This document shows, piece by piece, positions 37,639-56,456 of a stretch of DNA of 64,000 nucleotides. The DNA is taken from NCBI GenBank assembly GCA_963422375.2, contig OY729428.2, forward strand, positions 1,728,001 through 1,792,000, written 5' to 3'. Source of the stretch: Bryobacterales bacterium (GTDB taxonomy: Bacteria; Acidobacteriota; Terriglobia; Bryobacterales; UBA6623). A program made the translations under genes and the position numbers. Numbering within the stretch: the stretch's first letter is position 1; the number at the start of each line of letters is the position of its first letter. The notes beneath the pieces were generated by a model. The model saw nothing but the letters and a program-made list of their open reading frames with translations, had not been told where the DNA came from and searched no databases.

Positions 37639-38170
37639 GTGCCGGACCGAGCACCGGTACGGTGCATTTCCCGCCAGTGCTACACGAATGCTGACCTGAT
37701 CGGCGTCCGAGCCACGGGGTTGCCGATCATCTTGGACTGGAGTGTCGCTCAAGCGGTCCACCATAGAGGGGGGCTGACGGCCGCGCTCTAGCGAGGCTTC
37801 AACTCCGGCCAGTGAGTGACGGAACCTCCAGAAATAACGGGGTCGATGGGCGCTGGCCCGGCCATCTACGAGACACCGCCGTGAAGAGACTCGCGGGCGA
37901 GTACGAAGTTGCCAAGGGAGTCTGCTGGATGTACACGTGTGGGGCTTGTCGGGCCTTGGTTCGGAACATTGATCGCTTGGCATTGGGTTGGTCTTCGGAT
38001 TGACTAGCAAGAATCCTCCGCGTATCACCGTCGGATCCATTGATCAACCGGCGCGGCATGCCTAGCCCGCGACAGCATCAAGGAACCGCCTCGGGATGTT
38101 CATCAAGCCTCTAGATCGCACATCAAATGGGGCTCCTATCACCGACTATACGTCGGGGTGATTTTAGTTT

Positions 38171-38587
38171 GTGGAATCATTTATCTGAGTGTCTAAGCAG
38201 CCAATGCGGCGAAATAATTAAGGCATCAGATAATCTCATATTTCTTCCCTATATCTGGTGATATTCGGTGGATTATCTTGGTAGAATAGTCTTAGTATAT
38301 GAGTCTATAAATGAAGAAGATATGTCGTAGAAAGGGAATTTGTAAAATCATCACTTTATCCAAATGATCGCCATGTTTCCCGATGACGAATCCACGGAAA
38401 CATGGTTCGCCCCCATGCGCTGGCCGAACGGCCCGTGTGCTCCCTCTGCCTCGGCTCCGGCGTGCAGTCCGGCACGGCCCACCCTTCGATGCCGAACCGT
38501 TGATCCGGCTGCGGCAAGCGCTTCTCGGTGCGCACCGGCAGCGTGATGGCCGACACCGAGCTCGGCTACCGCATTTGGGCCATGGCC
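38171..38587 (+). mobile_element. Degenerate left fragment of IS1595-family element (type A)
   Basis: Decayed TIR GTGGAATCATTTATCTGAGTGTC; homologous to the 40285 and 53871 left ends and transposase 5' part; cut by the ISNCY at 38588. Confidence 0.75.
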
Positions 38588-41450
38588 CAGCGATTCTCAA
38601 TTTGGGCATTTGGGATTTCCAGAGTGTCTGAGAAAGGTGTCGAAGGCAGTCTGGCACTTGACTTTTGCTAGCGGAATGTGTGAGCTAGGGTGAATGCCCC
38701 ATGTCCTGGACGCGCTGCTGAGCGCCTTCCGCGAGACGGCCGCCGGCCGGCCCGACCGGCGCGACGGTCGCCGCAACAAGCGCTACGAGGTCAGCGACGC
38801 CGCCGGTTGCGCCCCGGCCTGCTTCTTCACCCGGTGCGAGTCGTTCCTCGCGTTCCAGCGGCGCATGGAGCGGGACGGCTCGCGCTCCAACTGCCGGACC
38901 CTGTTCGGCGTGGGCCGCATCCCCTGCGACAACCGGATCCGCAACTTGCTCGACGATCTCGACCCGGCCGCGTGCGACCCGCTGTTCCGGCCGTGCCTCG
39001 CAACCGTGGCCGCGCAGGGCGCGCTCGAGCCCTTCCAGCGCCTCGACGAGCGCCTGCCGGCGGCTCCGGACGGCGTCCGGTTCCACCGCTCCGACAGGGT
39101 GCATTGCCCGCAGTGCTCGGTGCGGCGCGCCGGCAGCGAGCGCCGGCCGCATCACTTCCACGCCATGGCCGTCGGCCACGCCACGGTCCTGCCGCTGATG
39201 CCCGAGTTCGCGTGCCCGCAGCAGGACGCGGCCGCGACCCGCGCCGACATGAGCGAGGACGAGCGCAAGCAGGACTGCGAGCGCAACGCCGCCAAGCGCT
39301 GGCTCGCCGCTCAGGGCGCCTGGCTGCAGGCCTACCGCCCCGTCCTGCTGGGCGACGACCTGCACTGCTGCCAGCCGGTCTGCGAGGCCGCCGCGGCGGC
39401 CGGCATGGACTGCATCCGGGTATGCAAGCCCGGATCCCGCAAGCACTTGCACGAGGTGCCGGAGAGCCGGCGGGCGAGCGGCGCGGTGCGCTCGACCGGC
39501 TGGCTGCCGCGGCGCGGGAAGGGCAAGCGGTCCGAGCGGCACCGTTTCCGCCGGACGGCCGCGGTGCCCCTGCGCAAGGGCCGCGACGCCCTGCGGGGCA
39601 CTTGGATCGAGTACGCCGTGGAGCGCGACGGCAAGCGCACCTGCGCCAGCAGCTTCTTCGCCAGTCTCGCGGTCACCGCGGACAACCGCGGACAACGCGG
39701 AGCGGATCGCGCGCGCCGGCCGGGCGCGCTGGAAGATCGAGAACGAGGGCTGCAACTGCCTGGCGCGGCACGGCCGCAACTGCAAGCGCAACTTCGGGCA
39801 CGGCAAGGAAGGGCCGGCCAACGTGCCGGCCGTGCCGAACCCGTTCGCCTTCGCGCTCCGCGCCGTGGTGCAGTGCGTCTGCGCGCTGCGGCAGCAGTGC
39901 CGGCGCCAGCCGGTCACGCGCCGCGCCCTGTTCCGGGAGCTGCAGGTCGCGCTGCGCTGGTTCCGCTTCCCGGACCGGCCGACGCTGCTGGCAGCGGTGC
40001 GCGACGGACGCGCGCCTCCGGGCTGCCAGGCGGCCGGGGCCTGGATTCCGCGCAGTTTCGTGCCGGCAGCGTCCGGCCAGCGGCCGGCCGTCAAAGCCGG
40101 CTACCGCCGGAGTACGTCCGGCCGCGGGCTCGGCACTCCGCGGACCCGCGACGCGAGCCGCTCCACGGCCCTGCCCGCCGTCCGACGCTCCCGCGGGGCG
40201 GCCTCGGGAGCGCAACCTCTCGGTCAACTTATTCACCTCATCCTCCGAAACAACGTTCACGCACCCCCTTGACGGCTAAATTTAGGGAATTATATATCTG
40301 AGTGCCGAGGCAACCGATTTTGCAAATTATCAGTCCATAAATTAATTTCATATTTCTTCCAGAGATCTGTTGAAAGTCGGTGGATTATTTTGATAGAATA
40401 GTTCCAATATATGAGGTCGTATATGAAGCAGAAAGGTCCCGGGAAGTGGTTTCGTAAAGGCATCACTCTGATTGAAGTGATCGCCATATTCCGCGATGAC
40501 GAATCCGCGGAAAAGTGGTTCGCCTCCATGCGCTGGACCGACGGTCCGGTATGCCCCTTCTGCCGCGGCTCCAGCGTGCAGTCCGGCACGGCCCACCCTT
40601 CGATGCCGTACCGTTGCCGCGGCTGCGGCAGGCGCTTTTCCGTGCGCACCGGCAGCGTGATGGCCGACACCAAGCTCGGCTACCGCACCCGGGCCGTCGC
40701 CCTGTTCCTGCTGACTACCGGCATCAAGGGCGTCTCAAGTATGAAGTCAGGCACTCCGGCGGCGAGTACGTGCGCGGGGCAGCGCATGCGAACGGCATCG
40801 AATCGTTTGGGTCCCTGTTCAAGCGCGGCCTGTACGGAACCTATCACCGGATGAGCGTCCGTCATCTCGGCCGCTACCTGACGGAGTTCGCGGGACGGTG
40901 CAACGACCGCGACTGCGACACGGCGGAACGGATGCGGCGCATGGCGCGGGGCCTGGTCGGCCGGACGCTGACCTACCGGCAGCTGACCGGCAAGGCCGCG
41001 GTCGCGGCCCGAGCGGCGCCCTCCGAGCTGAGCGCCGCAGCCCGCTGCCGACGCACTCTTCACGCTCGATGCGCTTCACGCTCGGTGCGAGGGTCGCGCC
41101 GGCTCTGGAATCCCCCGGCGCGACCCGCGTCCGGCCCGGACCGTCCATGCAGGCCGTCGAGCGCCGGGGATCCGCTGTCTTCGGCCCTCGGAGGGCACGC
41201 AAGCGGCTTGCAAGGGGTGCCCTCCACCGCCAACCGGATTCCACCGGGGCATGCGAGGGGGCCTCTCTTATCCGTGCCTCGTCCATTCCGCTGGCAGGTT
41301 CGATTCAGATACGATCCCACTTTTCCGTGCCTACCGCGGCCGCATTCGAATGACCCCAGCCAGACGCCGACCTCCCTGCTCAGAGCAGTTCTCGTCGGAC
41401 ATGGCGTTGTCGGCACTCAGATATATAATTCCCTAAATTTAGAACCGCTG
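38588..41450 (+). mobile_element. ISNCY-family element with frameshifted transposase (38694-~40270); right TIR interrupted by IS1595
   Basis: PDRR.G.N..Y...D, FF..CESFLAFQRRM, LFGV..IP.DN.IRN.LD, KQDCERNAAKRWL, GRARWKIENE; left TIR CAGCGATTCTCAATTTGGGC versus reconstructed right end GCTAAATTTAGAACCGCTG. Confidence 0.8.
40285..41433 (+). mobile_element. IS1595-family element type A, internally deleted
   Basis: 24-bp TIR GGGAATTATATATCTGAGTGCCGA at both ends; 8-bp TSD TAAATTTA (40277-84, 41434-41); Zn-ribbon CPFC/CRGC kept, VEVDETY core deleted relative to the 53871 copy. Confidence 0.92.
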
Positions 41451-42333
41451 GTGTATGCCGCAAGGCCCGAAGACTCCGACGAATCCTCGAACTGTCCATT
41501 CCCCAAGTTCCGATAGAGCGTCGGCGCCTGCCCTCGGTACTTGTTGGGGTGGCAGTAGGAGCGGTATCCGGGCCGTCGCTCGCCGCAATGCAAGTTCCCT
41601 TCGGTGGACCAATCCAAGTAATTGGCGATCGCGAGGTCGAGCAGCCCGTCAAGGTCGTAATCGAACCACGCTGCGCTCGTCCCCCACTTGCCTTGATTGG
41701 ATGTACCGGCCTCTCGGTGACATCGCGAAACGTCCCATCCCCTTCGTTCCGGAGCAGGACCGACCGCCCATAGCCGCTTACGGCCAAGTCCGTGTCCCCG
41801 TCGTTGTCGAAGTCGCCCGCGGCTAGGCCCATCGCGAACAGGTGTTCCAGCCCGACTCCAGTTCCGGGCCCGGCCACCTCGAATTTCCCATCCCCGATTG
41901 CTCGATAAAGAGCACCGACTAACGGGCTGGGCGGATCGAACTTGTCTGTAGCCGCACTGTTGGCCAGATACAGATCAAGGTTGCGGTCCCCGTCATAATC
42001 GAGCCACGCGGCCCCGCCCCCCATAGTCTCGATCAGGTACTTGTCAGCAGTCGCGGCGTTCTCGTGAACGAAGTCGATTCCTGATTCCCGCGTTACGTCA
42101 ACGAATTCGACAGTCGCCCGCGCCAACGCGTCCTGGCAATTCGCGGGAGGCGTAGCGTGCCATGCGGACGCGCCAGCGAGCAGCAGCCGGATCGCGACCT
42201 GCCGCCCCCGGCCAAACCGTGGCACTGGGCTACCGGTCGCGAGCAGTTGCAAGCAGGCGCGCGATGCATAGTAGGCAAGATGTCCGTGCCGAGTCTGGCG
42301 TCTCGGCGGGGCGGTGGCCGTCTTAGTCCGCAT
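41451..42333 (-). pseudogene. CRTAC1/ASPIC-UnbV FG-GAP repeat protein, 5' part only, frameshifted and truncated by IS
   Basis: FVDVTRESGIDFVH, KYLIETMGGGAAWLDYDGD, AGDFDNDGDTD, YCHP..Y.G...LYRNLGNG. Confidence 0.85.
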
Positions 42334-43158
42334 GTTGAAGTGTTGGAGACCGCTGCAATCAGCGCGTCGAACCTATCCAGTCGTTCAGTCTGTCGCGTTT
42401 CGTCGGAATGGCCCGGCCGGGCAGGGCCACCCGAGGCTCGGGCAGGTCGGGGGGCTGGTGGCGACGAACGGACCGCGAGTGTCTCCGCCCGCGCACTGTC
42501 TCTAAGAGTCGGTCGCGACCCATGGTGTCCGACCATCGCGGGAAGTCCGAGTCTTTGAACGGCTGCAAGGCAAGGTCTCAATCCCGAAAACCCCCAGGAC
42601 AATCTCTGTGAATCAGAAGAAAAGCTCGCCTGCGTCTGATGCTCTCCTCGCGAAGACATCGGGACGGTGGCACACGCTGAAAGGTGCGTGTTGCCCAGCG
42701 AAGCGTTCATTCTTGGGGGATGTAGTCGAATCGAAGTGCCGGGGACTACCCTCGATTCCCGCCAGAATCCGCCTTAGAAGCCAACTCGGCTGGCACCGAG
42801 GGGCCTGCCGACCAGACCCCCTCGGTGCCAGGCTCGTTCAGGAGCAATGGGGTCAGAAGACGACCTTGACTCCGAACTGGATGTTCCGTGCGCCGAACGT
42901 GCTGGCGACTCGCCCGAAATTGCCGCTCTGCAGGCTGCCGTTCACCGAGCCTAGGTTGACGTGGTTGAAGACGTTGAAGAACTCCGCCCGCAGGTCGATA
43001 CGACCGCCCTCGCCGAGCAGCGGCACGCGAATCTGCCGTAGAAGGTTCAGGTCCGCGTTGGCGAAGCCCGGGTTTGTGAAGGTGTTGCGTCCCAGCGTGC
43101 CCGGGCGGACGGACTGCAGTTTCGGGAAATCCGCCGCGGTGAACAGGCCGTTTATGTA

Positions 43159-46082
43159 GTGCTTGTGACAAAACCATGATATTTTGGGGATTCTAGCTGA
43201 TAGATCCCGACCAAATGATAGCTATGGAAGAAACAAGCTGTGCCAATTAACCGCACTCATTGCCTTATATTCCATTTTCATTGTGAGGATACAGTTAGTT
43301 CTGTTCTAGTTGTACACTTTTCCTGAACCTTGTCTCTTCAAGGTTTCAATTCAGGGCAATTCAGATCGCTGCAGACTGCCTATGCAGCCAGCGGCAAGGG
43401 TCCCGTCTTGAGACGCTCCCTCTCTCTGTCGCGCTCTCTGTCGCGCACGATCCGGCCCACTCGATGCACGTTCGCCGCCAGGACCGCTAGCCCGATCATC
43501 CGCTCGAATCCCTCCGCTCCCCGGTCCGTCACCCCGTCCGGACCGCGGCACTCGAGATTGTTGATCGCGGACTCCACGGCCGGGTGCGCCTGCCTCGCTG
43601 CCGCGAATTCGGGCGCGCCTTCCGTCTCCTTCGCCGCCTTCGACCGCCTCCCCTTCCGCGGCATCGCGTGGCACGACAGCAGTTCCCCCAAGCGCGTCCG
43701 GTTCGCCGGGCTGTGAAAGCCCTTGTCGAAGCTGCAGCTCGACAGCCCCGCGTACAGCCCCTGCGCCCCCTCGACGATTCCCACCGCCACGTCCGCGTCG
43801 CTGCCCTTCCACGTCACTTCGTGATTCATCACGAATCGGTGCTCGCTTTCCACGATGCATACCGGCACGCCCGGCTCCACCGGCACCCCCGCTTTTCCTT
43901 GCACGCACCAGCGCGTGTGTTCCTCGAAGATCGAGAACACTTTCCCCTCGTGCGGGATCTTCTCCCCCCGCAGCACGCGCCGCTCCACCGGGTCCGCCAG
44001 GAGCTGCACGCACCCGAGGTAACTCCTTGCCGCTCCCAAGGTTCCCTCGTCTTCCCCGGCCCGCTCCAGGGCCGCCAGCGCACCCTCCGCCCGCCGCGCT
44101 ATCTCCAGGGCCGCCTCCAGGTACGACCGCACCCTCTCCGGGTTGGCTTTCCTCCTCTTCGCCTGCCGCACCCGGTTGAATTCCTGCTTCAGCGTCTTCG
44201 GCAGCCGCGCGCTCTGCCGCCAGCCGGCGATACCGCGCCCCTTGCACAGCGGCGCAATAGAGCGAATCAGGCAGCGCACCGCGTCCCATAGAAGACTCAC
44301 GTCCGTCGGGTAATGCACGTTCGTTTCCACCGCGAAAGAGTCGCACCGCGCCTTCAGCGGATCGCCTTCCTCGCACCCCGCCAGCGCGTGCCCTTCCTGC
44401 ACCACCAGCTGATTGATTTCCGCGAGGAGGTCGGGCGTGAGAAGCTTCGGATTCCGGTTGACTGTCCGGTAGCTGAAGACCCGCTCGTCGAGCGTCGCGT
44501 TCAGACCGAGGAAGCGCCGGACGTCCGCATGCTTGTTCGCCAGCTCCGTCACGCGGTCGCAGTCGCAATTCAATCCCTGCTTGAGCAGGCCCGGGACGAG
44601 AATGTTCCACAGCTGCATGCCGGGACGACCGAGGGCAGGGTTGATCCTGCCGGACTCGCCTGCGGAAGGATCGCTTCCGTTCCCGCCGTTCCCGCTACTC
44701 TCGCCGAGGCCGAGGATACGGCTCTCGAGCAGTGCGAAAACCCTGTCCCGCAACTCCTCGGTGCGATAGATAGATTGTATTCCTAGCAAGATGGCCGGGA
44801 TATCGTCGCGGGAACGGACGTCGGGATCGATATCCTCGATTGCAGTCCGGCCAAGGGTGAGCTGGATCTCCTGAACGGTCCTCACGGGCGGTTCCTCAAC
44901 GAAGATCCTGATTACCAACGAACGTCAGCCGAGGATAGGCTATACTGAAGGAGGTCGGAAATCTCTGATAGGAAAGGGGATAGCAGCTGAAACGCAATCG
45001 CGTGCAATGCCAGAAGGGACTCAGCCCGGGCAAGTTCCTGCAGCGCTACGGCAGCGAGGGGCCATGCGAGCAGGCCGTCTTCAAGGCCCGCCGGCCGGAC
45101 GGCTTCCGCTGCCCGGAGTGCGGCTCCCGCCGGCACTGCCGCATCCGCTCCCGCAAGCTCCGGCAGTGCCACGCCTGCCACCGCCGGACCTCCCTCGTCG
45201 CCGGCACGATCTTCGCCGCCACCAAGCTGCCGCTGACCGTCCGGTTCCTGGCGCTCCACCTGCTGACGCAGGGCCAGCACGGCGTTTCGTCGCTGGAACT
45301 GGCGCGGCAGCCGGGCGTGAGCCGGAACACGGCTTGGAAGGTGAAGCACAAGCTCCTGCAAGTGCTGAAGGAGCGCGACGAGCGCGTGCCGCCGGGCGGC
45401 ATCGTGCAGGTGGACGACGCCTACTGGGGCCTGCTGGGGCGGGGAGCGGACCGGCGGCAAGCGCGGTCGCGGCGCGGCGGGCAAGACGCCGTTCGTCGCC
45501 GCCGTGCAGGTCACCGCCGCCGGCCAGCCGGCAAGGATGCGCCTGAGCAGCGTGGCGGGCTTGCGCAAGAAGACGCTGGCAGCATGGGCCGGGCGGCACT
45601 TGCAGCCCGGCACGGAGGTGCATTCCGACGGCCCGGCCTGCTTCCGGGGCGTGGCCGACGCCGGCTGCGAGCACGTGCCGACCGTCACCGGAGGCGGGCA
45701 GCGGAGCTGCGGGGATTCCCGCTTCGTCCGGGTCAACGTCCGGGTCAACACGATGCTGGCGAACGTCAAGCAGTCCCTGGCGGGAACCTGCCATGCGCTC
45801 GACGGCAAGCACCTGCCGCGGTACCTCGCCGAGTTCCGCTACCGCTTCAACCGCCGCTACGATCTGGAGGCGCTGGTCCCCCGCCTGCTCCACGCCTCCG
45901 TGCGCACCCCGCCCAGGCCTTTCCGCCTCCTAACCTTGGCTGAGTCTTGTGGGTAATCAGGACGAAGATTGTCGCACAACCCCCGGAAACGCGCAAGCCG
46001 GCCCGGATCGCCCCGATCTTCGTCCCACGGACCTGCTGCAACCTCCCGGAAACTAAGGGCTTGCGCGTTCTGTCACAAGCAC
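43159..46082 (-). mobile_element. ISNCY-family (ISDol1-like) element, transposase ~44885-43380
   Basis: TIR GTGCTTGTGACA; 6-bp TSD TATGTA (43153-58, 46083-88); SRDDIP, GRPGM, RCDSFAVETNVHYPTD, SFDKGFHS, AVESAIN. Confidence 0.92.
44907..45961 (+). mobile_element. IS1595-family element type B (copy 1), frameshifted, nested in the ISNCY 5' leader
   Basis: TIR CCTGATTACC; 8-bp TSD ACGAAGAT (44899-906, 45962-69); start codon is CTG where the other copies have ATG. Confidence 0.92.
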
Positions 46083-48791
46083 TATGTAGTCCTGCCTGGA
46101 GGCTCCGTCGATCGAGCTTCCGAAAGCCGGGGTGTCCGGGTAATCGTTGTTGAGTCCGTCGGCGTTGAAGTCGCAGCCGTTGTTTCCGATCATGTTGCCG
46201 CTGTCGTCGAAGACCGGATTGAAGGGCAGCCCGCAGTTGACCGTGAACGGGGACCCAGTCTGCAGGATCGAGGTCAGCCCGAACTGCCATCCGCCGAAGA
46301 TCGCCTTGCCCGGGCCGTTCCGAAATGGCGACGGAATTTCGAAGATCAGGCTGGTCGCGAACTTCTGCCGCACGTCGAAGCGCGAGCGCCCGCGGTTCAG
46401 GCGCATGTTCGTCAGCTCGATCAAGTGCTCGCCAGAAAAGCTGCTGGCTGTGTCGATCGCCTTCCCGAACGTGTAGGCCCCTTGGAATAGCAGGCCATGC
46501 GCGAAGCGCTTCTTGAGGCTGAGGTTGCCTCCGTGGTAGTACGACTTGCCGTTGTTCTGGCCGTACGTGATGCTGCCGAAACTGGGGTTCAGGCGGTCCA
46601 GCCGCCCGTCCAGCAGATCGCCCGCGAAGCGGTTGACCTCGTAGTTCTGGTACAGTTTCGATCCCTGAGAGCCCACGTAGTTGGCTTCGACCGCCCAGTC
46701 GTTGCCCAAGGCGTACTGGATGCCGAAGAACCAGTTGATGGCGTATTGATTCTTCAGGTCCGGCTCCCATATCTGGATCGCCGCCGGCACGCCGACCAGC
46801 ACGCCGCGCTCGTCGAGCCCGATCTGGAGATCCGGCGGGCGCGGGAACTGCCACGGCGACTCCATGGTGCTGCTCAGGCCGTAGACCGGCTGCGCGTCGG
46901 TCTGCTTGCTGACGTCCGCCACCGCGAAGATCGGCAGGCTCGTGCAGCAGTCTCGGTAGAACTGGCCGCCGGGACGGTCGTAGAACATCCCCGCCCCGCC
47001 GCGGATGGACATCTTGCCCCGCCCGGTCGGGTCCCACGCGATACCGAGACGCGGCGCGACGTTGTTCATGTCGGTCGAGGCCAAAGGCGGCCCCTGCCTC
47101 ACGCCGACGTCGGCGATCCGCTCCGTGAAGTTGCTGCCGCCGCGAAAGTTGGCGCCGACGAAGATGGCGTCCAGGTCGGTCGGGATCGGGAAGGCCTCCC
47201 AGCGGACGCCCCAGCTGACGGTGAGATTGGGCCGGACCTTCCAGTCGTCGTTGACGAACATTCCGAAGTTCGTGAAGCGCGGGCGGAAGTCGAAGCCGCG
47301 TGCGTCGCCCGTGGCCGGGTCGAATCCGATGTTGCCGTGCGAGAACGGGTCGTCCAGGATGAAGTCCCAGGTGTTGTTGAAGCCGTAATTCGGACGCTCC
47401 CAGACCGCGGCGAACAGGGCGCCCGCGCCGGGGGAGCCGCTGTCGCAGTTGAAGTTCCCGCCGAACTTGAACGAGTGCGAGCCCTTGTTCCACGTGGTCA
47501 CGTTGCGCCACTGCTGGTTGTTCTGGATGAAGACCGCGTCGGAGAACCCTTGCCCGTAGCTGGAGATTCCGGGCACGTTGATCAGGGGAATCTCGCCGCG
47601 TCCGATGGGCGCGTCGCCCTCTGCGTGCTACCGGGACCACGAGAGCTCGTTGATGACGTTGGTCGAGATGATGCGGGTCCAGTTCAGGTTGGCGAAGGCC
47701 GTCCACTGCTCCTGCATTTTCGTGAAGGCCGGATAGACCGAGGGGTTGCCGAACAAGACCTGCTGATTGGTGGTTCGGGCCACGCTGCCGTAGATGCGGT
47801 CCCTGCTCTCGTTGAAGTTGTGGTCGATCCTAGTCGTCCATTGCAGGCCGTCCCGCGGGAGCGTCTGGGCGAAGGACCCGCGCTCGGTCACGGGGAAATT
47901 GCAGGGCATCATGCCGATGGGCGTCTCGATGGGAGTCGTGCCGGAGCAGTCCGAGCCGGCCAGCCCCCCGGCTGTCTGCGCAACTGCCTTGTTAGTCAGG
48001 ATGTCGGGAAACTCGTTCATCACCATGCTGCTGATGTTGTCCGGGTATCGCTGGCGCACGAAATCGGCGAACTGCCGGCTCACTACGGTGTTGCTGAATC
48101 CGGCCCCGACGCCGGAACGCAGGATGTCCATCGAGGCAAAGGCGAAGGTGCGGTTCCTGAGGATCGGCCCGCCGAGACTCCAGTTGGCCTCGTTGCGGCG
48201 GAACACCGGCACCTTGGGCTGAAAGAGGTTGCGTGCCTGCATCTTGTTGTTGGTGTGGTACCAGCCCAAGGTGCCGTGGTAGTCGTTGGTGCCTGACTTG
48301 GTGACCACATTGACGAGGACCGAGGAGTTCCGACCGTATTCCGCGGAGAAGTTGTTGACGGAGACGCGGAGCTCCTGCACGGAGTCGGCGTTTGGGTTGT
48401 GGTTGACGACGCCGCCGCGCGGGCTGGCGTTGACGGAGGCGCCGTCGACGTTGAAGCTGTTGGACTCGGCGCGCTGGCCGTTGCCGCTGAGGTTGACGCC
48501 GTACTCGGCCGAGAAGATGTCTCCGGTGGCCTGCGCGTAGGCCTGCCCGCCTCCGGACGGCAGGCCTACCACGCCTGGCGTGAGCACCACCAGCGTCATG
48601 AAGTTGCGCCCGACCAGCGGCAGGTCCGCGACCTCCATCTCCTCGATCTGCCCGGACACCTGCGCCTCGCCGGTCTCGATGAGCGGCGCTTCCGAGGTCA
48701 CGCTGACGGTCTCGGTAGTCTGGCCCACCTCGAGCTGGATGTTTAGGGTGGTGGTCTGCGCGACCTCTAGCGTCACCCGTTCCTGGACGTA

Positions 48792-49944
48792 CTGAGGGGC
48801 GCAAAAGTCGTTCTGGCCGTTCGCGCCCTCTGCTGAGACCAGTTCCGACACTTGAACGTGGTAGAATTGTTGCATGAATCCCTTCCAATTCGACGACTTT
48901 CGGCGACTCCATCATAAGCTTGAGATTACCGTTCGAAAGTTCGTCTTCACGCAATTCACGCTCGGCTATGTTCCGGAAGAACTCGCGATGAAATTCGGCA
49001 TCGGAACCGGAACGGTCAAGTCCTGGGTGGCTAGATTCATCGCCGGAGGCATGGGGGCACTGGATGATCGGCCCGGAACTGGACGCCCTCGCATCTTGAC
49101 CGAGGAGCACGCGCAGTGGATCTTCCATACCGTCGTCGATAAGAATCCCCGGCAGCTCAAGTTCGAGTTCGCCTACTGGACCGTCCAGAGAGTCCGCCGC
49201 GCTTTCATCGACGAGTTCGGCATCGACGCGAGCCGCTGTGCCATCCGCCGCGTCATGCGTCGGCTCAGGCTCACGCCGCAGAAGCCTCGCTTCCGGGCAT
49301 TCCAGCGCCGGACGGGGCAAGTCGCGCGATGGATTGACACGACATTCCCGGAAATCAAGCAGGAGGCCGAGCGGGAAGGGGCCTTGATCATGTTCGCTGA
49401 AGAGGCCGGAATGCGCTCCGACTATCACGTGGGACGGACGTCGAGAGTGCGCGGACAGACGCCCGAGGTGACCTGCACGGCCACGAAGTTTCGCTTCAAC
49501 ATGCTGGCAGCGATCAGCCCGGACGGCCGCATCCATTACATGCTGCACGAGGGCGCGGCGGATGCTGGAAGGTTCTGCTCGTTCGTGAAGCAGGTGGCGG
49601 AAGAGACCGGCAGGAAGGTGCGCTTCGTAGTGGACGGCTGCCGGATTCGCACGGCGCGAGAGGTGGCGAGTTTCCTCGAGAAGGAATTCGAGGACGGGCA
49701 CGTGAGGATTCGTATTCTTCCGGCGTACTCCCCGATGCTGAACCCAGCTGAGCTGCTACGGTCGCACGTGAAGCGGATGGTGAGCCGGAAATGCTTCAAG
49801 ACCGAGGACGAGCTGTTGCGCCTGCTCGAGGCGGAATTCAAGTCGCTAAGGGACTTGACTGACAAGGTGGCTCGCTTCTTCAAGGAGCCCGATTGCAAGT
49901 ACATTCTGGCGTGACCCGCCCGAGACGACTTTTGCGCTCCTCAG
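48792..49944 (+). mobile_element. IS630-family element, transposase 48874-49914
   Basis: 20-bp TIR CTGAGG(G/A)GCGCAAAAGTCGT; TA duplication; GRPR, YWT, LPAYSPMLNPAE. Confidence 0.93.
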
Positions 49945-50539
49945 TAGGTCTGGAACCCCTCCGCGCTTGCCGTGACCCGGTAGGTGCTGGCCGCCAAGGC
50001 GGTCGCGCGGTAGCGCCCGACACTCGAGGTCTCAAGCGTGCGAGTCGTGCCAGTAGCGACGTCCTCGATAATGACCTCGACCGCGGGAATCACGGCGTCG
50101 GTCGGATCGCTGATCGTTCCCTCGAGAATACTGCTGAACTGCGCCTGCAGGCCAAGTGTGCCGACCAGCAGCAGGACCAGTGGGCGGAGCATCCGCCCGG
50201 CGCGCCGCATACGGCGAGAAGCAGGACTCCCTGCCCGTGATCGATGATTCATTCGCTCTCCCTCTGGTCCTGGCGCTGCGGCTGGTCAGCCCCGATAGCC
50301 GCCAATATGGTAGAGCATTCCGGCTGGCGCATCGCTACACCGGATTACGCTGAACGGGGAATTCAGGGCTCACCACGAGGCCTGCCATTCAGTCCGACCG
50401 ATATTCATCCGTGTCTGCGAGCCAGCTCTTCGAGGGCCGAGCCACGAGGCACCTGAGGACCGGAGTTGCGAAGGCGGAGCAGCGTGCTTTGACCGTCACC
50501 GACCGGTGGGTAACGAGATCGGTCGGACCGGGGCACTCC

Positions 50540-50830
50540 AGCCCGAGATTCGTCGCCCGCAACGCCTTCGGCGTGACGCGGTGCAGGAGCGCCGTCAGTT
50601 TCTTCTCCCGCAGCTACCTGTTCACTGGCTGCCGTACGCGTTCGGTGCCGCTTGGCATGGATCCGCGACTCTGCGTCCAGCCCGAGTCGGCTGGTCCCGT
50701 CTTTCCCTTGATCCCGGCCATTCACTCCGGCGGCTCCGGCGGGACTCGCGCCCCTTTGGTCGCCGCCTTCGTCGCTACGACGCCCGGGTCTGACTTCTGC
50801 GCGCCGTGCATCCGCGACTCCGGCTCACGG
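50540..50830 (-). mobile_element. Group II intron remnant (domain II-III region and start of the RT/maturase ORF)
   Basis: Minus strand ATGCACGG..AGAAGTCAGAC..CGTAGCGACGAAG..GGAG..GGCCGGGATCAAGGG.., then the reading ERVRQP..EKKLTALLHRVT typical of intron IEP N-termini. Confidence 0.65.
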
Positions 50831-50889
50831 TGTAGGGGCCCACTTTGTTCAGTTGGATCACCGCCGTGCTTTCGCGAATTGGATTGATA

Positions 50890-51937
50890 CGGTTATGCAC
50901 TTAGCTCTAGTATGCTCAAAGTTTGCGCTGCGAGCGGAGGTGTCGGGCGATGGGAAGCGATTCCGAGGCGTTCCCGCGGAACGCGGAACATCCTCGAATG
51001 CATGGAGCGGTTCGGTACGGAGCGGGCGTGCGCCGAGTACCTGGCCGCCGTGCGCTGGCCGCGCGGTTGCGCCTGCCCGCGCTGCGCGGGCGCCGAGGCG
51101 TGGACGACTGCGCGCGGCATCCTGTTCTGCAAGGCGTGCCGCCGGCAGACCTCCCCGACGGCCGGCACGGTCCTGCACAAGTCGCGCGTGCCGTGGCGCG
51201 GCTGGTTCCTCGCGATGCGGCTGGCTTGCACGCAGCAGACCGGGCCGAGCGCGGCGGGCTTGCAGCGCGAGCTCGGGCCGGGCAGCTACCGCACGGCCTG
51301 GCTGCTGCTGGCTGCTGCTGCCAGAGCTTCGCTCGGCGATGGCGAGGCTGGGCCGCGAACGCCTGCAGGGGGCGGTCGAGGTGGACGAGGCGTATGACGA
51401 GGCGTATGTCGGAGGCGCGGAAAAGGGCGTTTGCGGGAGGGAACCGGCCGAAAAGTGCCTGGTCGCGGTCGCCGCGGAGCTGGAGGGGCATGGCGCGGGG
51501 CGCATCCGCCTCCGGCACGTGCCGGACGCCTCGGGGGCGAGCCTGGCGGGTTAGGTAGCGGACTGCGTCGAGCCGGGCAGCCTCGTGCAGACGGACGGTT
51601 GGAGCGGCTATCGCAGCCTCGAGCGGCGCGGGTACCGGCATCAAGTGACCGTCACGCGCGGCAGCGGGGACGTTGCGGGCACGGCGTTTCCGCAAGTCCA
51701 CTGGGTGATCTCGCTGCTGAAGCGCTGGCTGCCGGCCACGCATCAGGGCAAGGTCGGCGCGAAGCACTTGCAGCTCTATCTCGACGAGTTCACGTTCCGC
51801 TTCAACCGGCGTCGGTCGCGTCACGTTGGCAAGATCTTCTACCGGCTCTTGGAGCAACTGGTCTTGCAGCGAGCGGCTACGTACCAAGAGCTAATCGACA
51901 GGCCGGAACAGCCTGACTAGAGCTAAGTGCATAACCG
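50890..51937 (+). mobile_element. IS1595-family element type C, pseudogenised
   Basis: TIR CGGTTATGCACTTAGCTCTAGT at both ends; RWP.G..CPRC, VEVDEAY, QTDGW, HLQLYLDEFTFRFNRR; frameshift and TAG; flanks not duplicated. Confidence 0.9.
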
Positions 51938-51946
51938 TATTCAGGG

Positions 51947-51962
51947 GTTTTGTCACAAGCAC
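51947..51962. repeat. Solo terminal repeat of the ISDol1-like element
   Basis: GTTTTGTCACAAGCAC followed by TATATA (TANNTA target), matching the 43159 end in reverse complement. Confidence 0.75.
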
Positions 51963-52281
51963 TATATAGTTCCCATAGTTTGAGAATCGCCCGAATGAGA
52001 CGCCCCAACCCAAAACGAGTGCAGTTGGTCGCACCTCGTGGCCGTGCAGCCCCGCAATGGGCGCCTCACGGCTCCTAGCCTCTAGCACCGCGCTGAATGG
52101 GACAATCGATCGTCATTCGCGAGAAGCCGTTGAAAGCCCGCCCTACTGCTAGACTCTCCGGCACGGCCACTTGGTCGACCTTCCAAATGAATCGACATGG
52201 GGCTGCTTGTACATGAGGCTAGCGGAGGACCAGAACTCGACGGGATCCAGTCAGTGGAGGAATAAGACCCTCAATTGATCA

Positions 52282-52714
52282 TTAGGTCTCATTGCTTGCA
52301 TCATGTAGGAACTTGATCGATGCTTCTCTACTGCGAAATGAACCTCGAACTTCATCCCCATTTGAGGATTCCATGAAAAGTTCATATCTTACGAAACTTC
52401 TTGGCCTCAACGATTCATCATAAGCCAAAATAAAACTGATCGCTGACTCTACAGAAGTGAGTTCTTGAAAATCGCCTGAAACAGGCAAAATAGACACGAT
52501 CTTGATGAACTGTGTGAGACTAGACTTCAATTTACGGAAGAATGATAGCCCGGACCGAGTCAATAGTGATGCAAGTTCATTGCGGAGTAGGCTCCTCGAG
52601 TTGGAGTCCAGCCCGTGTAATGCTGCGACTCTTCGCCGTAGTTCCTCTGTGGATGTACCCTCCTCTGACGACACATCTAGCCCTGCCCGATGGAATGCAT
52701 CCACAATACTTCTA
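52282..52714 (-). pseudogene. C-terminal fragment of a probable type II restriction endonuclease
   Basis: AT-richer; IVDAF..AGLDVS, ILPVSG...SVESAISFI..YDE, FVRYE....SNGDEVRGSF; lies downstream of, and co-oriented with, the MTase fragments. Confidence 0.5.
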
Positions 52715-53756
52715 CCTGGTTACCCACAAGACTCAGCCAAGGTTAGGAGGGGGTAAGGCCTGGGCGGGGTGCGCACGGAGGCGTGGAGCAGGCGGGGGAC
52801 CAGAGCCTCCAGGTCGTAGCGGCGGTTGCAGCGGTAGCGGAACTCGGCGAGGTACCGCGGCAGGTGCTTGCCGTCGAGCGCATGGCAGGTTCCCGCCAGG
52901 GACTGCTTGACGTTCGCCAGCATCGTGTTGACCCGGACGAAGCGGGAATCCGCGCAGCTCCGCTTCCCGCCTCCGGTGACGGTCGGCACGTGCTCGCAGC
53001 CGGCGTCGGCCACGTCCCGGAAGCAGGCCGGGCCGTCGGAATGCACCTTCGTGCCGGGCTGCAAGTGCCGCCCGGCCCACGCTGCCAGCGTCTTCTTGCG
53101 CAAGCCCGCCACGCTGGCCACGCTGCTCAGGCGCATCCTTGCCGGCTGGCCGGCGGCGCTGACCTGCACGGCGGCCACGAACGGCGTCTTGCCCGCCGCG
53201 CCGCGCCCGCGCTTGCCGCCGGTCCGCTCCCCGCCCCGGTAGGCGTCGTCCACCTGCACGATGCCGCCCGGCGGCACGCGCTCGTCGCGCTCCTTCATCG
53301 CTTGCAGGAGCTTGTGCTTCACCTTCCAGGCCGTGTTCCGGCTGACCCCCGGCTGCCGCGCCAGTTCCAGCGACGAAACGCCGTGCTTGCCCTGCGTCAG
53401 CAGGTGGAGCGCCAGGAACCGGACGGTCAGCGGCAGCTTGGTGGCGGCGAAGATCGTGCCGGCGACGAGGGAGGTCCGGCGGTGGCAGGCATGGCACTGC
53501 CAGAGCTTGCGGGAGCGGATGCGGCAGTGCCGGCGGGAGCCGCACTCCGGGCAGCGGAAGCCGTCCGTCCAGCGGGCCTTGAAGACGGCCTGCTCGCATG
53601 GCCCCTCGCTGCCGTAGCGCTGCAGGAACTTGCCCGGGCTGAGTCCCTTCTGGAATTGCACGCGATTGCGTTTCATCTGCTATCCCCTTTCCTATCAGAG
53701 ATTTCCGACCTCCTTCAGTATAGCATATCCTCGGCTGACGTTCGTTGGTAATCAGG
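52715..53756 (-). mobile_element. IS1595-family element type B (copy 2), ORF 52720-53676
   Basis: TIR CCTG(A/G)TTACC; near-identical to the 44907 and 55424 copies; flanks not duplicated. Confidence 0.92.
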
Positions 53757-53870
53757 TTTCTGATAAGCGAGACATAGGAGTCTAAGTTAGGAGCCATATG
53801 TTCCGCTTTCCTGATCACAGAGCTAACGCGGTCAAAATACTCATCTGGCGAAATGCGGTATGCAAGTTTA

Positions 53871-55414
53871 GGGAATTATATATCTGAGTGCCGAGGGAAT
53901 CAAGTCGGCAAATTATCAAGCCATTATAAGATTTCATATTTCTTCCGACTTTCCGTTGACATTCTGTGGTGTTTCTTGGTAGAATAGTTCCAGTAGGGGA
54001 TACCGTAAATGAAGAAACAAGGTCCCGGAAATTGGTTCCGTAAAGGCATCACCTTGATCGAAGTGATCGCCATGTTCTCCGATGACGAATCCGCGGAAAA
54101 GTGGTTCGCCTCCATGCGCTGGCCGGACGGTCCTGCGTGCCCCCGCTGCCGCGGCTCCAGCGTGCAGTCCGACGCGGCCCACCCTTCGATGCCGTACCGT
54201 TGCCGCGGCTGCGGCAAGCGCTTTTCGGTGCGCACCGGCAGCGTGACGGCCGACACCAAGCTCGGCTACCGCACCTGGGCCGTCGCCCTGTTCCTGCTGA
54301 CTACCGGCATCAAGGGCGTCTCGAGCATGAAGCTGCACCGCGACCTAGGCATCAGCCAAAAGTCGGCCTGGCACCTGGCGCACCGCATCCGCGCGTGCTG
54401 GGAGCGCGATCGGGGCCTGTTCGCCGGCCCGGTGGAGGTGGACGAGACCTACGTCGGCGGCAAGGAACGCAACAAGCACGAGAGGAAGAAGGCCCGCGCC
54501 GGGCGCGGGCCCGTCGGCAAGACGCCCGTGGCGGGGGCGCGGGACCGCGCCACGAACGCAGTGGCCGCGCGGCCGCTGCCGGGCACCGCCGAGGGCGACC
54601 TGCAGGGCTTCGCGCGCGCCCGCGTCGCGCCGGGGGCGCAGCTCCGCTCCGACGAGGCGGCGGCCTGCGCCGGCATGGCCGAGTTCGCGCACGAAGCCGT
54701 CAGGCACTCCGGCGCTCCGGCGGCGAGTACGTGCGCGGGGCAGCGCATGCGAACGGCATCGAGTCGTTCCGGTCCCTGTTCAAGCGCGGCCTCTACGAAA
54801 CCTATCACCGGATGAGCGTCCGTCATCCGGGTCGCTACCTCACGGAGTTCGCGGGACGGTACAACGACCGCGACTGCGACACGGCGGAACGGATGCGGCG
54901 CATGGCGCGGGGCTTGGTCGGCCGGACGCTGACCTACCGGCAGCTGACCGGCAAGGCCGCGGTCGCGGCCTGAGCGGCGCCCGCCGCGCTGAGCGCGGCA
55001 GCCCGCTGTGGGCGCGCGCTTCACACTCGGTGCGCTTCACGCTCGGTACGAGGGGCGCACCGGATCCGGAATGTCCCGGCGCGACCCCGGTCCGGTCCGG
55101 ACCGTCCATGCAGGCCGTCGAGCGCCGGGGATCCGCTGTCTTCGGCCCTCGCAGGGCCTGCAAGCGGCTTGCAAGGGGTGTCCTGCCACCGCCAACCGGG
55201 TGCCACCGGGGCAACCGGGGCAGGCGAGGCGGCCTCTCTAGTCCCTTCCTCGTCCAATCCGCTGGCAGGCTCCATTCAGATACGATCCCACCCCACTCCA
55301 CCCCTCTGTGCCCGCCGCGGCCGCACTCGCATGACCCCAGCTCGACACCCACCTCCCTGCTCACAGCAGTTCTAGTCGGACATGGCGTTGTCGGCACTCA
55401 GATATATAATTCCC
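53871..55414 (+). mobile_element. IS1595-family element type A, full length, frameshifted transposase (54009-54973)
   Basis: 24-bp TIRs; CPRC/CRGC, GVSSMKLHRDLGISQKSAW, VEVDETYVGG, NGIESF, YLTEF; 8-bp duplication at 54707-22. Confidence 0.92.
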
Positions 55415-55423
55415 AAATTAATT

Positions 55424-56456
55424 CCTGATTACCAACGAACATCAGCCGAGGATATGCTATACTGGAGGAGGTCGGAAACCTCTGACAGGAAAGGGGATAG
55501 CAGATGAAACGCAATCGCGTGCAATTCCAGAAGGGACTCAGCCCGGGCAAGTTCCTGCAGCGCTACGGCAGCGAGGGGCCATGCGAGCAGGCCGTCTTCA
55601 AGGCCCGCTGGCCGGACGGCTTCCGCTGCCCGGAGTGCGGCTCCCGGCGGCACTGCCGCATCCGCTCCCGCAAGCTCTGGCAGTGCCATGCCTGCCACCG
55701 CCGGACCTCCCTCGTCGCCGGCACGATCTTCGCCGCCACCAAGCTGCCGCTGACCGTCCGGTTCCTGGCGCTCCACCTGCTGACGCAGGGCAAGCACGGC
55801 GTTTCGTCGCTGGAACTGGCGCGGCAGCCGGGGGTCAGCCGGAATACCGCCTGGAAGATGAAGCACAAGCTCTTGCAAGTGATGAAAGAGCGCGACGAGC
55901 GCGTGCCGCCGGGCGGCATCGTGCAGGTGGACGACGCCTGCCGGGGCGGGGAGCGGAGCGGCGGCAAGCGCGGTCGCGGCGCGGCGGGCAAGACGCCGTT
56001 CGTGGCCGCCGTGCAGGTCACCGCCGCCGGCCAGCCGGCAAGGATGCGCCTGAGCAGCGTGGCGGGCTTCCGCAAGAAGACGCTGGCAGCGTGGGCCGGG
56101 CGGCACTTGCAGCCCGGCACGAAGGTGCATTCCGACGGCCCGGCCTGCTTCCGGGGCGTGGCCGGCGCCGGCTGCGAGCACGTGCCGACCGTCACCGGAG
56201 GCGGGCAGCGGAGCTGCGGGGATTCCCGCTTCGTCCGGGTCAACACGATGCCGGGGAACGTCAAGCAGTCCCTGGCGGGAACCTGCCATTCGTTCGACGG
56301 CAAGCACCTGCCGCGCTACCTCGCCGAGTTCCGCTACCGCTTCAACCGCCGCTACGATCTCGAGGCGCTGGTCCCCCGCCTGCTCCACGCCTCCGTGCGC
56401 ACCCCGCCCAGGCCTTACCGCCTCCTAACCTTGGCTGCGTCTTGTGGGTAATCAGG
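55424..56456 (+). mobile_element. IS1595-family element type B (copy 3), ORF 55504-56451
   Basis: TIR CCTGATTACC; 8-bp TSD AATTAATT (55416-23, 56457-64). Confidence 0.93.

Follow-up and report, generated by a model that had tools for sequence, protein, structure and literature searches.

Insertion sequences in the window

The window analyzed here is a 64,000-nucleotide stretch (G000:C2:1728001-1792000) of the genome of a Bryobacterales bacterium (G000), which is 6.0 Mb in size, has 67% GC, lies in three contigs, and is 96% complete. It contains insertion sequences (IS) whose sister copies differ repeatedly by CTGG versus CCGG, a pattern that an earlier note on this DNA had attributed either to a process resembling repeat-induced point mutation (RIP) or to very short patch (VSP) repair. 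The window keeps synteny with a Bryobacterales relative at 74 to 79% DNA identity. Approximately 8.5% of the genome sequence lies in repeats with at least 10 self-matches, and nine IS families were aligned, with 89 (family A), 83 (B), 28 (C), 19 (F7), 19 (F9), 18 (F8), 13 (F13), 8 (F12), and 5 (E) full-length copies. Families A and B belong to IS1595, E is IS630-like, F12 is ISAzo13-like, and F7 and F9 are DDE_Tnp_1 types.

Three family A copies lie in the window. The copy at 44906..45962 (plus strand), one of the 89 full-length genomic copies, has derived CCGG at W36R (45092) and W59R (45161) as well as at L14P, W86R, Q67R, L109P, L136P, L213P, and W245R, and it carries 10-bp and 12-bp tandem duplications. 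The copy at 55424..56456 (plus strand) has an open frame of 315 amino acids and derived CCGG at W147R (55942) and L250P (56252), among others, and the copy at 52715..53756 (minus strand) has a 9-bp duplication. All ten 4-mers cited in the earlier note read as it gave them (45091 CCGG and 55608 CTGG, 45160 CCGG and 55677 CTGG, 55941 CCGG and 45424 CTGG, 56251 CCGG and 45756 CTGG, 40689 CCGG and 54275 CTGG). The motifs ARQPGV, SDGPAC, LTVRFL, and HRRTS, at which it had expected Leu, Leu, Trp, and Gln, are present in all three copies, and the expected residues are those of 107 outgroup proteins (Leu in 82 and Ile in 20, Leu in 106, Trp in 107, and Gln in 106). At the 45160/55677 site (W59R) the outgroups have Tyr or Phe, and its polarity is assigned by analogy. 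One unitig of short-read run X2 links the family A right end to its own left end at 52714/53758 (side 37 letters), as a circularized element or two copies in tandem might produce.

Family B is represented at 53864..55419 (plus strand) by one of the 83 full-length copies, which retains CTGG, the ancestral state, at 54276 (CCGG, giving W90R, stands at this site in 71 of the 83), and at 40274..41439 (plus strand) by a copy with an internal deletion and derived CCGG at 40689. An older B-like relic with 79% identity to family B (38166..38588, plus strand) is truncated at the start of a family C element (38588..40274, plus strand; 28 full-length copies), and a Pfam scan of family C gave no match. 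Copies of family C, compared without polarization, contain 20 polymorphic CYGG/CCRG sites. In the ISDol1-like element at 43157..44906 (minus strand), a member of the 13-copy family F13, the sites LVPGL (44593) and VEPGV (43873) were correctly read in the earlier note as Leu-to-Pro changes and lie at CTGG; these and a third at 43540 each occur in 9 of 13 copies. The IS630-family copy at 48790..49946 (plus strand; 5 copies) has two polymorphic CCRG sites (3 copies versus 2). An IS1595-like relic of low copy number (2 to 3) at 50888..51950 (plus strand) holds ELGPG (51269) and WLPAT (51726), which the earlier note had assigned to a "type C" element; the motifs are in place, and the changes would be Leu to Pro. 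Run X2 lacks 7 bases at position 50975 inside this relic, which is a strain difference.

A directional signature at CTGG

Four families (A, B, F7, and F13) were polarized with outgroup transposases at codons conserved in the outgroup sets, and sites were kept only if the ancestral codon was the consensus or was still segregating; families C, F8, F9, F12, and E were compared without polarization. In the polarized families, T-to-C changes carried by at least 10% of copies were found at 21 of 37 CTGG sites and at 30 of 513 other T sites (odds ratio, 21; P = 1.3e-14), an enrichment by context beyond chance, and the mean derived frequency was 0.35 at CTGG versus 0.024 at other T sites. In families A, B, F7, and F13, in that order, the counts at CTGG were 10/14, 5/7, 3/9, and 3/7. 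The hot context is mainly CTGGG and TCTGG. All 12 CTGGG sites were changed (at frequencies of 0.38 to 0.98) versus 9 of 25 other CTGG sites (P = 2e-4), and TCTGG gave 6/7, GCTGGA 0/3, and GCTGGC 1/5. Other TGG sites (7/31) and TAG sites (7/14) were also raised relative to the remaining T sites (16/468).

The direction of change in family A, as read from the 107 outgroup proteins, is from CTGG to CCGG and from CCAG to CCGG, the ancestral residue being Trp, Leu, or Gln. Deamination of methylcytosine (CCGG to CTGG) is ruled out because the outgroups show these residues as ancestral, and the direction is opposite to that of RIP, the changes being T to C rather than C to T. Among the families compared without polarization, for which few sites were available in each, pairwise differences at CYGGG exceeded those at other sites in family C (0.95 versus 0.09), F9 (0.48 versus 0.09), and E (0.64 versus 0.12) and were not clearly raised in F8 (0.07 versus 0.04) or F12 (0 versus 0.03). 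T-to-C singletons were found at 12 of 106 CTGG sites versus 216 of 3023 sites elsewhere. The effect is not masked by a two-way hot spot, because C-to-T singletons are not raised at CCGG (31/375 versus 369/4478 elsewhere). At the inner C of CCWGG in the IS families, C-to-T singletons numbered 9/56, against a background of approximately 0.08, which hints at methylation of the Dcm type.

The change at CTGG is not the sole one but the most pronounced component of a general drive from AT to GC. Outside CTGG, at least 10% of copies carried AT-to-GC changes at 59 of 1120 sites versus 3 of 1725 for GC to AT (P = 5e-21), with C to T at 1 of 739. The GC-neutral changes at this frequency were intermediate for exchanges of C and G (10/985) and absent for exchanges of A and T (0/595). 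Singletons reverse this order in count, with 51 AT-to-GC and 77 GC-to-AT changes, and in family A 129 of 219 singletons are GC to AT. The spread of GC alleles does not spare conserved codons for Trp, Leu, Tyr, Phe, or Lys, which are destroyed by it, and every copy of the three families that were counted carries damaging alleles (minimum and median of 3 and 15 in family A, 5 and 12 in B, and 6 and 15 in F7).

Exchange of sequence between copies

The IS copies stay 4 to 7% apart as fine mosaics. Among 88 family A copies with 84 polymorphic sites, 3338 of 3486 site pairs were incompatible in the four-gamete test, and r2 fell from 0.15 at 1 to 5 bp to 0.04 at 16 to 30 bp and to 0.015 to 0.019 beyond 60 bp, where independence corresponds to approximately 0.011. 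Linkage extends further in family B, with r2 falling from 0.48 to approximately 0.1. Haplotypes of several bases, such as three synonymous changes within 7 bp, recur on unrelated backgrounds, as do identical tandem duplications of 7 to 14 bp, each found in as many as 17 copies. Recurrent point mutation is a poor explanation because linked triplets and identical duplications both recur in this way, which points to conversion.

The duplications occur in all IS families with little microhomology (mean, 1.1 bp) and could represent footprints of target sites, or staggered breaks that were filled, spread by conversion. A link between duplications and CYGG sites was suggestive in family A and vanished over eight families (5/38 versus 3.5 expected). 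At positions 516 and 518, which are of the T:G type on opposite strands and 2 bp apart, all four combinations occur (27, 25, 12, and 6 copies), and the changes at positions 934, 936, and 937 are mutually exclusive. Both patterns fit short repair patches and also context-dependent recurrence.

Host genes, pseudogenes, and other repeats

The earlier note had judged by eye that neighboring host genes were unaffected, and this holds well beyond the neighborhood. The controls came from a comparison with 2.0 of the 6.9 Mb of the relative G003. The 821 intact genes showed radical T-to-C changes at 30 of 5653 CTGG sites, and the 28 single-copy pseudogenes had 3 of 189 at CTGG versus 45 of 3347 for other T-to-C changes (P = 0.74). 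Among pseudogenes with several lesions the count was 2 of 59. At host synonymous sites, T was found in 7.4% of NCY-GG, A in 7.8% of CCR-G, and T in 4 to 6% of NCY-GGG, and the ratios between G000 and G003 were the same as in other contexts; approximately 90% of host third codon positions in the listed open reading frames are G or C. Joining the flanks of IS copies recovered 6 split genes among 299 blocks; these six had not lost CTGG codons over 2270 codons, with Trp at 7 and Arg at 2 C-TGG-G positions, and a methyltransferase gene split by an IS was without bias (C to T, 8/232; T to C, 6/171).

In other repeats, radical T-to-C changes at CTGG numbered 14 of 74 where copy number was low (13 repeats) and 3 of 15 where it was high (8 repeats). 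Nine of the 13 low-copy repeats, which were transposase-like by eye, accounted for 14/47, and four host paralogues gave 0/27. No differences at CYGGG were found in a young 3-copy IS66-like family (0/5) or in 3- to 4-copy prophage duplications (0/13 and 0/12). A comparison of low-copy repeats without polarization gave no overall excess (CYGG, 142/1827; other sites, 3936/36786), because host paralogues and prophage dominate the set.

The same alleles are present in other assemblies, so that the sequencing or assembly artefact considered in the earlier note does not account for them. Short-read unitigs of two other studies, placed on the family A copy, show alleles of the family (e.g., F8C) as well as a 10-bp gap. 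The unique-flank and junction pieces listed for run X2 show 0 differences apart from one 7-bp gap, and short-read unitigs match both junctions of the copy at 52715..53756 with 0 differences. The alleles W36R, Q67R, L136P, L213P, L286P, W95R, and L118P were found in proteins from six further contigs of 41,662, 185,925, 1,462,510, 3,859,267, 17,870, and 10,706 bp, sizes unlike those of the G000 contigs. Related transposases from other sources form seven clusters (15 members listed for each) that are mostly without these alleles, and one cluster is polymorphic for W257R. The signature is real, genome-wide, and largely restricted to repeats.

Candidate enzymes and methylation

The vsr gene that the earlier note proposed to look for is present in a single copy at C2:2578401-2578835 (minus strand). 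Its product matches PF03852 (E value, 5e-30), aligns to the structure 1cw0, and has intact PD and HGCFWH motifs. The gene adjoins a gene for MTAP and lies approximately 1.5 kb from dinB, encoding Pol IV (G000:C2:2575560-2576864; L029:2561-3865), and no cognate C5-methyltransferase gene was found among its neighbors. It is kept in the genus, with 83% identity to the G003 homolog and presence in 30 of 31 genomes. The genome also contains mutS, mutL, and a mutY-like gene that scores 282 bits (cutoff, 286.5), and nucS was not found in a search of this 96% complete genome.

There are 18 matches to C5-methyltransferases in the genome, many of them fragments. The methyltransferase family that flanks the closest homologs of this vsr, found in 4 of 31 genomes of the genus, has a 62% match in G000 at C2:1865763-1868161, which is split by a family A IS and has a stop codon and a PC-to-PY change in the catalytic motif. 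At least one more methyltransferase gene (C2:398765-401145) is also in pieces. A prophage-like region occurs in three near-identical copies at contig ends (G000:C1:1-21456, C2:1307817-1350162, C3 ends, and C1:1824037-1843727) and encodes an intact methyltransferase and an HATPase protein.

The specificity of the methyltransferases could not be assigned via PDB, the Pfam domains of neighbors, plasmid annotation, or the Atlas. As to the CCGG-specific enzyme proposed in the earlier note, methyltransferases are present, none of them is assigned to CCGG, and at CCGG there is no excess of C-to-T changes. CCGG is not avoided genome-wide (observed/expected ratio, 1.04), whereas GTGCAC is avoided strongly (0.19) and CCWGG moderately (0.67), which suggests present or past restriction-modification systems for the latter two.

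Related genomes

The IS sample from relatives comprised the best-scoring 30 loci per search and 40 chosen copies from G038. The genome of G038, in which vsr is present, has similar mosaic IS1595 families that share A/C alleles, in one family at 19 of 26 shared sites. In G012 and G032, low-copy IS that are eroded lean from AT to GC, with T to C at 34/331 versus C to T at 4/395 and T to G at 24/262 versus C to A at 3/396. IS spectra differ within the genus, A to C being characteristic of G038 (L324-L363) and G032 (L207 and L368) and T to C of G012 (L206, L367, and L372). The one genome without vsr, G036, has only young copies (0.3 to 1% divergence) and is uninformative as a natural control. Since the IS of G038, G012, and G032 also lean to GC alleles, the GC drive may be common to the genus; the strong CTGG part appears peculiar to the G000 lineage among those sampled.

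Proposed mechanism

The best reading, and a probable one, is that the IS copies undergo ectopic gene conversion in which short-patch repair is biased toward GC. IS copies would trade sequence by ectopic, nonreciprocal recombination, and the mismatches in the resulting heteroduplexes, the step at which we infer that the bias is made, would be resolved singly by short-patch repair that retains G or C. Conversion of T:G to C:G would be most efficient in CTGG(G), as by a Vsr nick 5' of the T, and A:G would become C:G, as by MutY. GC alleles would then spread through a family and AT alleles would be removed. Single-copy genes would escape because they have no ectopic partner, and transposase inactivation would be a by-product and not a selected defense. 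The orphan Vsr is the likely agent at CTGG, and MutY would be the agent of the A-to-C changes. E. coli Vsr is described in one report as acting on CTWGG/CCWGG (PMC2715241), and V.NgoAXIV, the Vsr of N. gonorrhoeae, is stated in another to cut a CTGG/CCGG substrate (PMC6116569); an unlinked vsr is known in Caulobacter, where the system is named VsrA/ScmA (PMC12907096), and MutY is described as removing A from G:A (PMC12606429). The interpretation offered in the earlier note is partly supported: its CCGG-specific repair of heteroduplexes agrees with the T-to-C direction, the context, the restriction to IS, the exchange between copies, and the presence of vsr, but the drive is not specific to CCGG alone, given that A to C and other T-to-C changes are also favored.

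Toy Moran models, which had a star start, no transposition tree, and unchecked convergence of the optimizer, fit families A and B better with conversion bias than without it. In family A the log likelihood rises from -587.8 (no bias) to -579.9 (conversion bias) and to -566.0 (free CTGG mutation rate); in family B it rises from -496.5 (no bias) to -473.7 with a stronger bias and normal mutation supply, versus -477.7. Biased ectopic conversion is the preferred reading, with de novo mutagenesis as the main rival; the fits of families A and B disagree on the supply of CTGG mutations.

Several observations weigh against this reading. All 12 CTGGG sites are in mid-sweep together, which is hard to obtain with alleles of single origin, and the family A fit wants an approximately 15-fold supply of T-to-C mutations at CTGG that the family B fit does not. 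The spectra differ between families of one genome, family A being rich in A to C (13/158) and B in T to C (12/127), and no cognate methyltransferase has been identified for Vsr. In G038, CTGG changes were found at 0 of 13 sites in a 29-copy family and 0 of 693 over all pieces, in families that are less eroded and offer limited power; vsr alone is not sufficient, because this genome has the gene and no CTGG change. Ten IS1595 relics with 0 to 3 present partners are also marked (9/35 versus 33/600; P = 2e-4), so that the conversion reading must assume past partners. The pseudogene control is small and its members are of undated age, and three IS-split genes with opportunities gave 2/19 CTGG changes in one tally, between both expectations.

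Alternative explanations

In repeat-coupled de novo mutagenesis, pairing of copies or recombination-repair synthesis would make new T:G mismatches, perhaps through Pol IV, Vsr would fix them as C:G, and conversion would only shuffle the products. This is a tentative alternative, and several of the observations just listed favor it: the CTGGG sites at 38 to 98% with none fixed or absent, the gain of 14 log-likelihood units in family A when the CTGG rate is freed, and the marks in low-copy and now single-copy IS relics. The proximity of dinB to vsr also fits, as do the finding that overexpressed Vsr is mutagenic in E. coli (PMC2715241) and the suggestion that an orphan Vsr may cause breaks once its methyltransferase is lost (PMC12907096); the 62% match to the vsr-flanking methyltransferase family is split here by family A. 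Yet the family B fit prefers a stronger bias with the mutation rate untouched, the young IS66-like family and the prophage duplications are without CYGGG differences, CTGG singletons are just 12/106, and the duplications are not tied to CYGG sites. It is conceivable, though doubtful, that an orphan Vsr, freed from an IS-destroyed methyltransferase, writes CTGGG to CCGGG into recombining repeats and, together with GC-biased conversion, disabled several unrelated IS families; were this true, prokaryotes would have an equivalent of RIP that works from AT to GC.

A genome-wide hot spot is unlikely. It would combine Vsr acting on T:G replication errors with a general AT-to-GC pressure and would be visible only in long-dead DNA, the IS having been dead for longer than the pseudogenes. 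The marked single-copy relics, the lean of the eroded low-copy IS of G012 and G032, the 2/59 in multi-lesion pseudogenes, and the GC-rich third codon positions are in its favor, but the host synonymous T in NCY-GGG behaves as it does elsewhere, C to T at CCGG is not raised in balance, and neither the pseudogenes (3/189), the six IS-split genes, nor the IS-split methyltransferase follows the pattern. The hot spot would also leave the shared duplications and the removal of C-to-T alleles unexplained. Selection by the host for inactive transposases, or an evolved silencer aimed at IS, would account for damaging alleles in every copy (at least 3 in family A, 5 in B, and 6 in F7). It is very improbable, since Leu-to-Pro changes in CTGH contexts are equally damaging and yet rare (2/47 versus 18/30 at CTGG), damaging GC-to-AT changes are rare as well (3/1725), and a median of 12 to 15 hits per copy is far beyond the need for inactivation. 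An assembly, polishing, or methylation-miscall artefact in repeats is scarcely credible: raw Hi-C runs X7 and X8 placed 0 reads on the window, and none of the 20 variant rows listed is at CYGG, but the family alleles recur in unitigs of other studies, with unique flanks and both junctions free of differences except for the one 7-bp gap, and in proteins from the six further contigs, and host CTGG codons are intact.

Comparison with known systems

An issue behind bacterial GC content is whether bacteria undergo GC-biased gene conversion at all, and through which enzymes. With 80 to 90 neutral copies per family in one genome, the frequency spectrum and the motifs can be read directly, and they suggest Vsr and MutY as enzymes that can be tested. 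The case also illustrates how routine repair, with no silencing machinery of its own, can disable transposons the more, the more successful they are. A consensus transposase built from a genome of this kind does not represent the active ancestor. The signature is a new combination of known processes; a literature search in which subscription journals, and with them the early VSP genetics, were poorly covered found no title or abstract on directional, motif-specific erosion of IS families.

The likeness to VSP repair lies in the conversion of T:G to C:G in a short motif and in a Vsr family protein with its catalytic motifs. VSP repair in E. coli protects methylated CTWGG/CCWGG sites, whereas the mark here is CTGG(G), is confined to IS, damages genes, and is without an identified cognate methyltransferase. 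GC-biased gene conversion, proposed in bacteria to explain GC content (PMC2936535), where AT-biased mutation has also been described (PMC2936535 and PMC3205602), is resembled in the AT lean of new mutations, the GC lean of high-frequency alleles, the recombination, and the spread of harmful alleles. It differs in that exchange here takes place between ectopic copies in one bacterial chromosome set, that the spectrum comes from 83 to 89 copies, that the motifs are enzyme-like, and that the motif bias is absent from host synonymous sites. In Wolbachia wBm, gene conversion among nonfunctional IS copies has been described (Cordaux 2009, as cited in PMC3196728), and dead copies are likewise kept alike by conversion; the outcome there, as far as that source relates it, is homogenization, whereas the copies here are 4 to 7% mosaics with a directional, context-specific bias.

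As in RIP, point changes in a specific context accumulate selectively in repeats and leave the transposases inactive. RIP is a premeiotic, de novo process of fungi that changes C to T and needs a methyltransferase-like protein (RID/DIM-2-like). The changes here are T to C and A to C, and alleles from GC to AT are removed. As to confinement to duplicated DNA, the mark is present in the IS families and absent from the pseudogenes, but single-copy IS relics are marked and prophage duplications are not.

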